DNA from: Podarcis gaigeae | Lineage: Eukaryota | Assembly: GCA_964106915.2 (NCBI GenBank) | Contig: OZ066916.1 | DNA: 64,000 nt | Strand: one strand, 5' to 3' | Shown: piece after piece, positions 11,937-15,721 of the stretch | Layout of the letters: every line of letters begins with the position of its first letter | Position numbering within the stretch: position 1 is the first letter of the stretch | Program-made: the position numbers and the translations under genes | Notes under the pieces: model-generated | What the model was told of the DNA's origin: nothing | Databases searched by the model: none | The model's input: only the letters and a program-made list of their open reading frames with translations

Positions 11937-14114
11937 ACTACTGAAAGTTCATACCAAGTCAATGGCTTCTGCTTCTGTTTCCCATCTTCTGGTGAGATAC
12001 AGTGTTATTTTTACTAAGAAATATTTTACTTGTGTGGAAGTGACAAAAGTAAAGAAAGGGAAAACAAGCCCAGTGCTGTGACCCTGAAAAATACTTTCTC
12101 CAGGTTGTTTCAGCTACACTGATTTTGTTTATATCAAAAAAGACTTAAGTGGGAAGAGCAGTACTTCAAGGTGGCCATGGAGATGTACAGCAACAGATCT
12201 GCATGCACAACCATAGCCCTGCCAGCTCTTGCTGTATAAGGCAGATGGTGGGGTGGGCATTTTCCTTTCCTTTCTTTTCTTTTCTTTTAAAAACTGCATC
12301 AGCTCCAGTCCAGAGTAGTAGATGGGGCCCAGGAGCTGGACTGGCTTACAACAAAATGGATCCATGGTCCAGCCCAGCTCCAGCCCCAACCCAGACCCTG
12401 TAACACCCCACTTGGGAGCCATCCCCTGGACCAATGTCTCCTCCACTATACTTGCTGAGGCTATAGTGGGGGGCTCTGTGGTGGCAGAGGCTGGTGGGCT
12501 ATTCACTGAATCCTACACACACACACGCACACCAGCAGTATGGTTGGGGGTTAGAACTGCAGCCTCAATATTTTAAATACACTTGGGAATAGTTAAGGGA
12601 GTAAGGTGTACCTAATTTTTGCTAGAGTGCACCCATATTTTTCTAGTTTTCGAGACCTACCAGTGTGTCACTGACCCGAAACACTATGCATAGCCAACAT
12701 TGTGCTAGTGGTAGATGCACCATGCAGATAAGAAGGACCTCCCCAAAGATCTAGATACCAAATAGTAATACAAATTTATCTACACAATTTATTATTTCCT
12801 CCCTTTGTCTTGTACATTTCTTAAATTAAAAGCTAGGTTGAAAATGTTATCCAGGACATGCAGCCCAGCCAACCATGTGAGCAATGAGTTATGTAACACC
12901 CTGTTAGTCGGCAAGATTTAGGTGACAGGGAAAAAAAAGCCTGAATGTGGTTGTTCTATTTGTTAATATTTCAAAACCTTTTAGAAAATTTTCTAAGCAA
13001 GTTCGCTATGTATACATACTGTCTAGAGATTTTACATATCTGTAATTCCCCCTCCCCTGCCCACCAAAAAAATAAAGATAGTTGCCAGAATTAATCTGCA
13101 CAGTTCAAATGAAAAATGTGAGCCATTTGCTTATTCAAGTGTGCATTAATTCATATGGAGTATGTGCAACTAAGATCAAAGCAAGAGTGTTAATATTCTG
13201 ACTCACTCAAAACAGAACAGTCCTCTCTTCAAATGTCAACAGAATAGGGCATTTATTTTGTTCTTGTATGCACTAATGAAAATTAGGTTTCTAAAACAGA
13301 ACAGGAAAATGTGTGCAGTAGTTAAACTCTTTTCTACAATAATTCACCAGGCTCATGTATTATTTTACTCTATTAAAAACTCTGCTCAAGTCCTGAACAC
13401 ACACAATAAGTAGATCTTCCTGAAAACAGTGCTACTTACTCCCAAGGAACTTGAGAGCTGTAGTAGTTTGGCCCAGCAGCCCAGTTCAGGATCCAGTGCA
13501 AGAGTTATGGTATGATGCTATGGAACACCTCAGCCCTTGACTTTGGAACTGTGGGCCAGCCTGCCTACCTTCTTTGCTTATACAAGAGAATTGGTGGTTG
13601 CTACTGTGCCTGAGCCCTGGAGAAGCCTATGCACTGTGCAGTTGTGTTACACAAGGAGGACAGAGAGGATCGAGATGGAGACAGACACAGGTGAGAGCTT
13701 CAGCTAAGAGCAGCAGTCCAGCTCCTAGCACAACCTTGTGCCATCAAATTAGTACTTACTGGGAGAAGAGGGAAATCTGAGGGCATGAGGCTCCTAGATG
13801 TTATGCTGCATGCATAGCAAAATGCCACTTAACTGCAGTAAAACAAGGCTTTCTTTGAGCCACTACAACTACCACAATTACAACTAAACTAGTACTGAAA
13901 GATACTGTAGTCAGTGGCACTCTGCGGTATATAGGTAGTTTCCTATAGCAACAAGGAATTTTCAGTGAAAGCAATGGCATTAATTCAAAGACCTGTGCAT
14001 CTTTTCACATACTGATACTGCATTTACAGATAGGTAGCCGTGTTGGTCTGCCATAGTCAAAACAAAAAAAATTCCTTCCAGTAGCACCTTAAAGACCAAC
14101 TAAGTCAGTTCTTG

Positions 14115-14152
14115 GTATGAGCTTTCGTGTGCATGCACACTTCTTCAGATAC
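14115..14152 (-). ncRNA. Minimal type I hammerhead ribozyme (mirror copy)
   Basis: Exact reverse complement of 14183-14220. Confidence 0.8.
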
Positions 14153-14182
14153 ACTGTGTATCTGAAGTGTATCCACTTCAGT

Positions 14183-14220
14183 GTATCTGAAGAAGTGTGC
14201 ATGCACACGAAAGCTCATAC
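14183..14220 (+). ncRNA. Minimal type I hammerhead ribozyme
   Basis: GTAT-CTGAAGA-A-GTGTGC(AT)GCACAC-GAAA-GC-TC-ATAC: stem I GTAT/ATAC, CUGANGA and GAAA cores, stem II hairpin, palindromic AGCU stem III, NUH cleavage predicted after 14216. Confidence 0.8.
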
Positions 14221-15721
14221 CAAGAACTGACTTAGTTGGTCTTTAAGGTGCTACTGGAAGGAATTTTTTTTGTTTTGATACTGCATTGTTAAAGCACAAC
14301 AGACCTGCACTTAAAATGGCTAGTTTATTTAGCTACTTAGCCATCTTCAGATTCTTATCACTATCTGAGAAATGTTATACAATGACTTGGATATATGGAA
14401 CGTCCATTATCTAAAAGCCATTCTCAGCATGAAGACTGCCGCTCAGCATGCTTCCTTACCAAAATAGTTTTCAGGGCAATACAATAGGCACACAAAAAAT
14501 GAGGCTGCACTCTGCTGGGAAGTTTTAATGCTAAGCAGAGCAGAGCATGATAACTATTGAAAAATTAACAGACGTTTAAAAACCCTAAAGTGAATCCGAA
14601 ATTCAAATTTATGTAAATTAAAATATACCTTTTTTGTTGAAAGCAGTACTTGGCAACCTTTTTAGCTGTGACATTCACAGTAAGCATAGTATAATATGAA
14701 TCTGTAGACTTGCTTATGGGGTAGGCTGTCAGTCAGAAGAAGAAGTACTGAGCTAGATAGATGAAGTTGCTTTGTTATGTCAGACTATTCATTGCCAGAG
14801 AGCCCCCCATGATACATAGCTTGGCTCAGGGAATATAAGTATAGAGTTAGTTTGACTAGCTTTCTTTCTTTAAAAATGTCATCATCCACCATTGCCAAAG
14901 AACTTCTCTTGAATTCACATGAACAAGAAGCATTAAGTTAGTGTAATATTCCAGGTAGATTCTGTAATGAGAGGGAAGTCCCTGCTCCAGTGACAACCCT
15001 GTGGTGTAGGCTAATAGTCTTGAGGGATCTGTCCTAGTCCTTTCTCTCTGCTGCCATTGCTTGCTTATGCATCATCAAGGCCTTACTGTGGTCTCCTCAA
15101 GATCTCTGGCTTGGCAACTTCAGCCTGTCTCCCCTCCACTTTCCTAGGCACATTAACAATCAGTGGCATAGGCCTTGAGTGTGTTCAGCTCTAATTAAGC
15201 AGTTTATTCAAATGGAGTATGTATTAAAAAAGGGAGAAGGGGGAGAAATGGCGAGTGTGCAGCTCAAGATACCAGAATATTGGTCTAACTAATCCTACAC
15301 TTAATCCAAACTAACATTGCCAACTTACTCTCAGTGGTCACCCCTGACACTGGCAGCTTCAGGCATGAGCTGCACATTGGGGAAATCAAGAGGGGCAAAG
15401 GCTGAATGGCCACAGACCCCTTTTTAAGGGTTTAGATTTTAGTGACAACTGGTAGTTTCAGGAATTAGGGGAGATGGTAGGCAGCTCCTGGGGGCAGTAA
15501 AAGAGGGTTATCAGTGGTAGAAATTACCCCCTGGGTTACACTATGTTCTTGCCGGTCAGGATTTAATCAATGACTTTGTGCACTGGAAGAGGGATCTGCC
15601 GTCTGCACTAAGGTAATGGGGGAAGAACACCAAACCTGGCCAGATTCTAGCATATCTATCCTGAGGTTTTTGTTCCTTGTACTGTATAAATTTAACATGG
15701 TTCCTCTGAGAATGACTGCTA

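Follow-up and report, generated by a model that had tools for sequence, protein, structure and literature searches.

Insertions of Penelope-like elements (PLEs) have been described by a recurring set of traits: an inverted, 5'-truncated copy, a tail at one end, target-site duplications of 8-10 bp and palindromes at the junctions (PMC8557442, PMC3846280, PMC2377424, PMC8969392). The tail is given as 30-40 bp (PMC8557442), 31 bp (PMC3846280) or 34 bp (PMC2377424), and inverted pseudo-long terminal repeats (pLTRs) with a one-sided tail are found in Pen2a of Adineta vaga (PMC3846280), in the scheme of Fig. 2 of PMC8557442 and in the 34-bp repeat of Drosophila virilis (PMC2377424). Minimal hammerhead ribozymes (min-HHRs) have also been reported in pairs on opposite strands, 100-700 bp apart, in other genomes (PMC4209133). 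Here we analyse an insert at 14025-14278 of a 64,000-nt stretch of DNA from the lizard Podarcis gaigeae (GenBank assembly GCA_964106915.2, contig OZ066916.1; this whole stretch is called the window). We hold with good confidence that it is a by-product of PLE insertion carrying inert ribozymes, and the class that suits it best is a truncated inverted-pLTR PLE insertion, not an autonomous element, a retrozyme, a miniature inverted-repeat transposable element (MITE) or a microRNA. Published precedents exist for hammerhead pairs on opposite strands, for inverted pLTRs, for tails and for palindromes at the junction.

A lizard PLE, Poseidon PAc of Anolis carolinensis, has been studied in vitro (PMC11167929). 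Its protein was seen there to cleave both strands of the target and extend them, to start reverse transcription at two internal sites that lie a tail apart, the tail being the stretch between them, and to take uncut RNA as template; the protein is modelled as a dimer, its endonuclease prefers the motif ATT, and the steps after priming of the complementary DNA (cDNA) are stated in that paper to be experimentally unvalidated. The P. gaigeae insert resembles PAc in having a hammerhead upstream of internal start sites, with the main PAc start 111-118 nt from the beginning of stem II and the outer end of the insert 116 nt from it, and in having ATT at the target end and uncleaved RNA as template. 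Both arms of our insert read straight through the hammerhead cut site, from which it follows that the copied RNA was uncut there, and the ATT at the end of the left duplication lends weak support to an origin from a PLE endonuclease.

The host fits as well. In a survey of 35 genomes, birds and mammals yielded no PLEs, and the same preprint places PLE-derived retrozymes, among vertebrates, in the relatives of reptiles and not in birds or mammals (bioRxiv 10.64898/2026.07.22.740005); PLEs are commonly polymorphic in anoles (PMC7561263). A hammerhead of PLE type would come as a great surprise in a mammal or a bird and is to be expected in a lizard.

Architecture and age of the insert

The insert consists of two arms in head-to-head orientation, a spacer between them and a tail on the left copy only, and each arm carries one hammerhead, so that the two ribozymes lie on opposite strands (Table 1). 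The arms are exact reverse complements at 100 of 100 bases, and the next base both outward and inward mismatches. The sequence-only reading that first drew attention to the locus had called it a perfect 100-bp palindrome; the exact 100-bp arms stand, but the structure is not gapless, since a 22-nt spacer makes it strictly an inverted repeat. That reading had also noted a flanking 12-bp direct repeat, which is present and occurs at only these two places in the 64 kb on both strands. The first three bases of its right copy double as the last three bases of the right arm, and because these bases are common to both, the target duplication is 9-12 bp long. The outer ends of the insert differ by the length of the tail, which fits the two reverse-transcription starts seen in vitro. 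GC content around the insertion site is 37%, close to the local background. No open reading frame (ORF) of at least 90 aa overlaps the insert, and no stop-free reading frame runs across the fragment, the open ends of the tail being too short for searching.

In the head-to-head repeat, the tail of the 30-40-bp type on one arm, the short duplication and the junction palindrome, the insert is like the published inverted-pLTR insertions. It is unlike them in having no ORF between the repeats, just two truncated pLTR ends, which makes it a minimal case, and its junction holds three successive templated pieces where those insertions have one palindrome. We consider that it is best explained by a single recent PLE insertion that left two 5'-truncated terminal-repeat copies head to head.

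With no differences over 100-109 paired sites, divergence of the arms is below about 3% at 95% confidence, while other repeat pairs in the window are in the best cases 79-92% alike over at least 50 nt. The insert is young within that bound. Inverted-repeat arms can be homogenised later, but the intact target duplication agrees with a young age. Motif, architecture and exact arms concur with the earlier description of a young, ORF-less, inverted insertion of Penelope type with minimal, dimer-type hammerheads.

Table 1. Parts of the insert and its target-site duplication, in window coordinates
Feature	Position	Strand	Remarks
Left target-site duplication copy	14013-14024	+	12 bp, or 9-12 allowing for the overlap on the right; final bases ATT
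Tail, left copy only	14025-14056	-	32-nt extension (32-35 nt); outer end is the presumed outer reverse-transcription start
Left arm, 5'-truncated pLTR fragment	14057-14156	-	ribozyme sense on the minus strand
Minimal type I hammerhead	14115-14152	-	predicted cut after 14119
Perfect 12-bp fold-back palindrome	14143-14167		left arm's inner end; centre of 1 nt; signature of self-priming
Spacer	14157-14178	+	22 nt; three templated pieces, 14157-14167, 14168-14173 and 14174-14178
Right arm, same pLTR fragment without tail	14179-14278	+	plus strand is the sense strand of the ribozyme; final 3 bases common to the target duplication
Minimal type I hammerhead	14183-14220	+	predicted cut after 14216
Right target-site duplication copy	14276-14287	+	12 bp

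The hammerhead motifs

A descriptor written after the published min-HHR consensus (PMC4209133) matches the window exactly twice, with core C3 at 14187 on the plus strand and 14148 on the minus strand, and matches none of 150 simulated 64-kb windows. Each arm holds one motif, as the sequence-only reading had it, and the motif fits the consensus in its CUGANGA core, an unpaired base before stem II, a G-C first pair, GAAA, a palindromic 15.2/16.2 and a UH cleavage site. On the plus strand stem I is formed by 14183-86 and 14217-20 (4 of 4 pairs, with a possible 4-bp extension of 14179-82 with 14226-29), the core occupies 14187-93, the unpaired A is 14194 and stem II spans 14195-14208. GAAA (14209-12), the palindromic AGCU (14212-15) and C17 (14216) follow. 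Stem II has 5 bp and a 4-nt loop, opens with G10.1-C11.1 and is in its entirety a perfect 14-nt palindrome; there is no loop 3, the palindromic 15.2/16.2 being followed directly by U and a non-G cleavage base (14212-14216). The cut predicted on the plus strand would leave a new 5' end at 14217, the position given before. Neither copy reaches into the U-rich 5' flank of min-HHRs, both breaking off 8 nt before the core. A loose hammerhead-like match at 58487 on the minus strand is without stem II, failed the stricter descriptor and was rejected.

Compared by eye with the 56 rows of Fig. S3 in PMC4209133, the motif is closest to that of the painted turtle, Chrysemys picta bellii. The two have in common the CUGAAGA core with an unpaired A, the G-C opening of stem II, GAAA, the loop-3-less AGCU and a 4-bp stem I. 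They differ by one pair in stem I (C-G in the turtle, U-A here) and one in stem II (G-C in the turtle, U-A here), each changed on both sides, by the loop (7 nt in the turtle, 4 nt here) and by the cleavage base (U in the turtle, C here). The perfect 14-nt palindrome in stem II is found only in the insert, as is the loss of the U-rich 5' flank through truncation.

Two further details were seen at the arm ends. Each arm breaks off precisely where the possible 4-bp extension of stem I has its base, which may mark a natural stop for the reverse transcriptase (RT). A pyrimidine followed by CAG, resembling a splice acceptor, lies ahead of the right arm; for D. virilis, PMC4209133 places the end of an intron at the 5' end of helix I.

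The spacer and the route of insertion

Read on the top strand, the spacer is made up of three exact reverse-complement, fold-back copies of sequence just made at the inner end of the arm, with none left over. The first two pieces were both copied starting from base 14153, and the third, which runs on to 14181, was copied from the piece that immediately precedes it. The right arm follows as the third copy from 14153. There are three priming events on this template base, with 1, 2 and 3 nt of microhomology. Tiling in at most three pieces was reached by 0 of 20000 shuffles (mean 9.6, minimum 5) and by 0 of about 20000 random 22-mers from the window, and a match of 11 nt by 2 of 20000 shuffles. 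The cDNA-sense strands of both arms run from the target ends to the centre.

For the exact route we lean, by a modest degree, towards priming from both nicks followed by a snap-back splint at one cDNA end. A PLE endonuclease would nick the two strands of the target at points 9-12 bp apart, and a cDNA would be primed from each of the 3' ends, one starting at the outer site and so including the tail, the other at the inner site, aided by a 3-nt match. The tail-bearing cDNA would stop 8 nt upstream of the ribozyme core, its 3' end would fold back, the RT or the host's polymerase theta would lengthen it in three brief rounds, and the sense-strand splint so made would pair with the second cDNA, closing the gap. 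Snap-back synthesis is known for polymerase theta and for group II intron-type RTs (bioRxiv 10.1101/2022.03.14.484287), and self-priming was earlier proposed for inverted PLE junctions, on an antisense RNA template (PMC3846280). More tentatively, and at what we would put as somewhat poorer than even chances, the junction may record the last step of PLE integration, in which an iterative snap-back splint joins two identical cDNAs that are unable to pair. We did not find this two-cDNA-plus-splint account in the literature searched, where subscription journals were thinly covered.

Two observations speak against this account. Tiled on the bottom strand, the spacer takes six pieces by pure fold-back and three by mixed fold-back and slippage, and a top-strand polarity of its synthesis is favoured, not proven. 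Both arms also end at the same inner base, which pure fold-back explains without a second cDNA. It is therefore conceivable, if on balance rather unlikely, that there was one cDNA only, whose 3' end snapped back, stuttered twice and copied the whole first strand, after which the 3-nt match served to join the product to the far end of the target, at a point 32 nt before the tail would have ended. The shared inner end of the arms falls into place on such a scheme, as does the fact that the third priming event at 14153 continues without a mismatch through the final 97 nt, and it can draw on the self-priming proposed for inverted PLE junctions and on the same work on snap-back by non-LTR-type RTs and polymerase theta. 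What it leaves unexplained is that the distance from the end at which the short arm stops is that of a typical tail (30-40 nt), and it has against it the two starts a tail apart and the extension of both strands seen in vitro (PMC11167929).

The insert is probably ordinary clutter in the genome, and its main value is as a record of how PLEs insert, an unmutated copy in which the two start sites, a template left uncut and a junction templated in three steps can all be seen. The snap-back-splint model is testable on any Podarcis assembly from the sequence. If it were true and general, one might expect many such scars in lizard genomes, with the mechanism readable from sequence alone.

On the minus strand an 8-bp helix can form between 14042-14049 and 14093-14100, the AC-rich tail pairing with the arm around the presumed inner start site. 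A helix as good was found in 25 of 300 shuffles, and that it might be a stem-loop at which the RT starts is only a lead.

Folding and present function

In a plus-strand transcript the ribozyme bases pair with the mirror arm at a probability of 0.97-1.0 from 14200 onward. To impose the hammerhead stems on this strand takes 46.5 kcal/mol once the motif is complete and 60.2 kcal/mol later, and on the minus strand 49.3-63.9 kcal/mol; the penalty falls to 2-7 kcal/mol only for RNAs starting at about 14145 or later. Because the arms are head to head, the antisense arm is transcribed before the ribozyme on either strand, and because it is made first the hammerhead fold is penalised in read-through RNA. 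With penalties of 46-64 kcal/mol in folding, the earlier proposal that a spanning transcript would hide its ribozyme in a 100-bp hairpin holds, and the hairpin itself has a stability of -195 kcal/mol.

Nor can the two motifs serve as each other's dimer partner within one RNA, because they lie on opposite strands. An isolated arm folds into stems I and II, and by nearest-neighbour energies, in which tertiary contacts are uncounted, a dimer through the stem II palindrome (-36.6 kcal/mol) is predicted to be more stable than a double-hammerhead dimer (-17.1 kcal/mol). A special fold of the 132-nt sense copy was considered and rejected (z 0.55; 140 of 200 shuffles fold as well). Of the minimal hammerheads published so far, monomers are described as uncleaved and dimers as cleaving weakly (PMC4209133, PMC6765202), and the anole PLE hammerhead needed protein and left no ends in RNA-seq (PMC11167929). 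Taken with the folding models, this suggests that the ribozymes are without present function, captured by the antisense arm that would be transcribed first. Ribozyme-assisted termination is unlikely. At most, the locus could be a passive source of a 100-bp hairpin that might, if transcribed, be edited by ADAR or cut by Dicer, as the sequence-only reading proposed. Inverted Penelope copies in Drosophila gave small interfering RNAs (siRNAs) matching the inverted regions (PMC3681739); for such hairpins in reptiles we found no paper in literature searched by title or abstract start.

The sequence-only reading had gone further and suggested that the unit could affect termination of read-through from the presumed SLC35F3, or transcripts divergent from COA6, through cleavage or through the hairpin. 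The position of the insert between these two genes, the great stability of the hairpin and the siRNAs from inverted Penelope copies in Drosophila could all be brought in for such an effect, which we nevertheless think improbable and did not retain. The ribozyme is masked on both strands, minimal hammerheads without monomer cleavage and with low cleavage as dimers are what has been described (PMC4209133), and the anole hammerhead is protein-dependent, with no RNA-seq ends (PMC11167929). The insert moreover lies 3.67 kb and about 4.1 kb from the two genes' relevant ends. From the SLC35F3 stop to the insert one counts seven AATAAA/ATTAAA hexamers, a weak argument, such hexamers being common in AT-rich DNA, and the nine on the minus strand from the promoter region to the insert are equally weak.

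The locus itself is of little weight, a small copy of a described PLE insertion structure whose ribozymes are predicted to be silent. If the snap-back-splint model is true and general, each such insertion would be born with its ribozyme off, and its hairpin could give rise to RNA that silences the family.

Family assignment and other classes

Several results weigh against the assignment to PLEs with inert ribozymes, or limit it. Rfam hammerhead models account for none of the 21 matches at E<=10 and none of the 3 obtained with one arm alone, and in the whole window no Rfam family of any kind reaches its gathering score, so that the check with Infernal that had been proposed turned out negative; we infer that the Rfam models miss motifs without stem III. 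No other copies were found in the window: the 16 blastn rows are the two arms, two of the stem II palindrome and 12 short ones (14-19 nt, E>=0.02), and nhmmer returned only the two arms. Two scans of prokaryotic genome contigs gave 0 and 0 relatives, and plasmids likewise gave none. Because no relative was found, family membership is argued from motif and architecture, not from an alignment to curated PLEs. The turtle row is not marked in PMC4209133 as tied to a PLE ORF, PAc, on which the in vitro data were obtained, is probably of another PLE family than the insert, and the folding energies ignore the tertiary core of the ribozyme and any help from protein.

An autonomous PLE was rejected: besides the lack of an ORF of at least 90 aa over the insert, a motif scan of the window gave no RT or GIY-YIG protein motifs of a PLE. 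A microRNA precursor was likewise set aside, all 21 Rfam matches being below threshold (best 66.2 against 90 bits) and scoring hairpin shape only. A MITE is defined by inverted repeats at both termini, and here the left arm begins 32 nt inside the insert.

The retrozymes described in bioRxiv 10.64898/2026.07.22.740005 are, like the insert, non-coding, hammerhead-bearing and PLE-derived; they are tandem direct repeats able to form active dimers in cis, whereas the insert is inverted and self-masking. A non-LTR retrozyme was rejected on these grounds, the pair being inverted and none of the window's 12 tandem arrays lying here. The wider idea of a mobile unit that is non-autonomous, resembles a MITE or a retrozyme and consists of the entire palindrome, copied as such from a master locus, appears to us quite improbable. 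The unit is indeed compact, ORF-less and bounded by a target duplication, and hammerhead-bearing non-autonomous PLE derivatives exist in vertebrates (bioRxiv 10.64898/2026.07.22.740005); yet its inverted repeat stops short of the left end, leaving no terminal inverted repeat, no tandem array is found at the insert, and the spacer resembles a one-off repair scar. That the inversion is a fold-back artefact of sequencing or assembly, or a later rearrangement of a solo copy, is very improbable indeed: perfect inverted repeats can, as is generally known, be read artefacts, but the unique flanks resume after a clean target duplication, the asymmetry of the arms equals a PLE tail, the spacer derives from the element, and the opposite-strand pairs 100-700 bp apart are on record from other genomes.

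Neighbouring genes and other elements in the window

The insert lies 3667 bp beyond the stop, at 10358, of what is presumed to be the last SLC35F3 exon, and about 4.1 kb ahead of the promoter-like region of COA6. The SLC35F3 label is putative and comes from the sequence-only reading, from the character of the protein and from the gene order; a Pfam search of the last-exon frame gave 0 families. An exon at 20218-20361 matches Pfam COX6B, in keeping with COA6 as the downstream neighbour. A CpG-rich stretch lies by COA6 at about 17.5-19 kb, and within it a promoter-like stretch at 18280-18420, upstream of COA6, has motifs that we take to be NRF1-like and ETS-like. TARBP1 in the window is confirmed by homology: among the matches listed (120 of 158), its first exon is 98% identical to the Podarcis muralis protein, with the runner-up at 75% and mammals at 40-47%, which by itself places the window in a wall lizard or a closely related lacertid.

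Other elements were seen in passing. At 227-4222 on the plus strand an unbroken Gypsy-type pol frame of 1331 codons encodes protease, RT, RNase H, integrase and chromo domains; this LTR retrotransposon lies apparently within an intron of the presumed SLC35F3 and looks recent. An open frame of 202 codons at 58699-59307 (+) has no Pfam match and presumably resembles a protein of a DIRS-type element. An interspersed repeat that ends in a short tail of simple repeats is present three times, at 9219-9482, 45600-45939 and 63248-63596, and may resemble the Sauria/Squam1 short interspersed element. Within TARBP1, two related near-palindromes of about 130 nt (28200-28338 and 29062-29208) lie 862 bp apart and are 89% alike; their arms are 87-92% complementary, and they are MITE-like and older than the PLE insert. 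A dispersed repeat also lies in TARBP1 introns at 24599-24851, 33253-33505 and 34231-34264, with two copies inverted, 8.4 kb apart and 79% alike over 253 nt, which could pair in the pre-mRNA.

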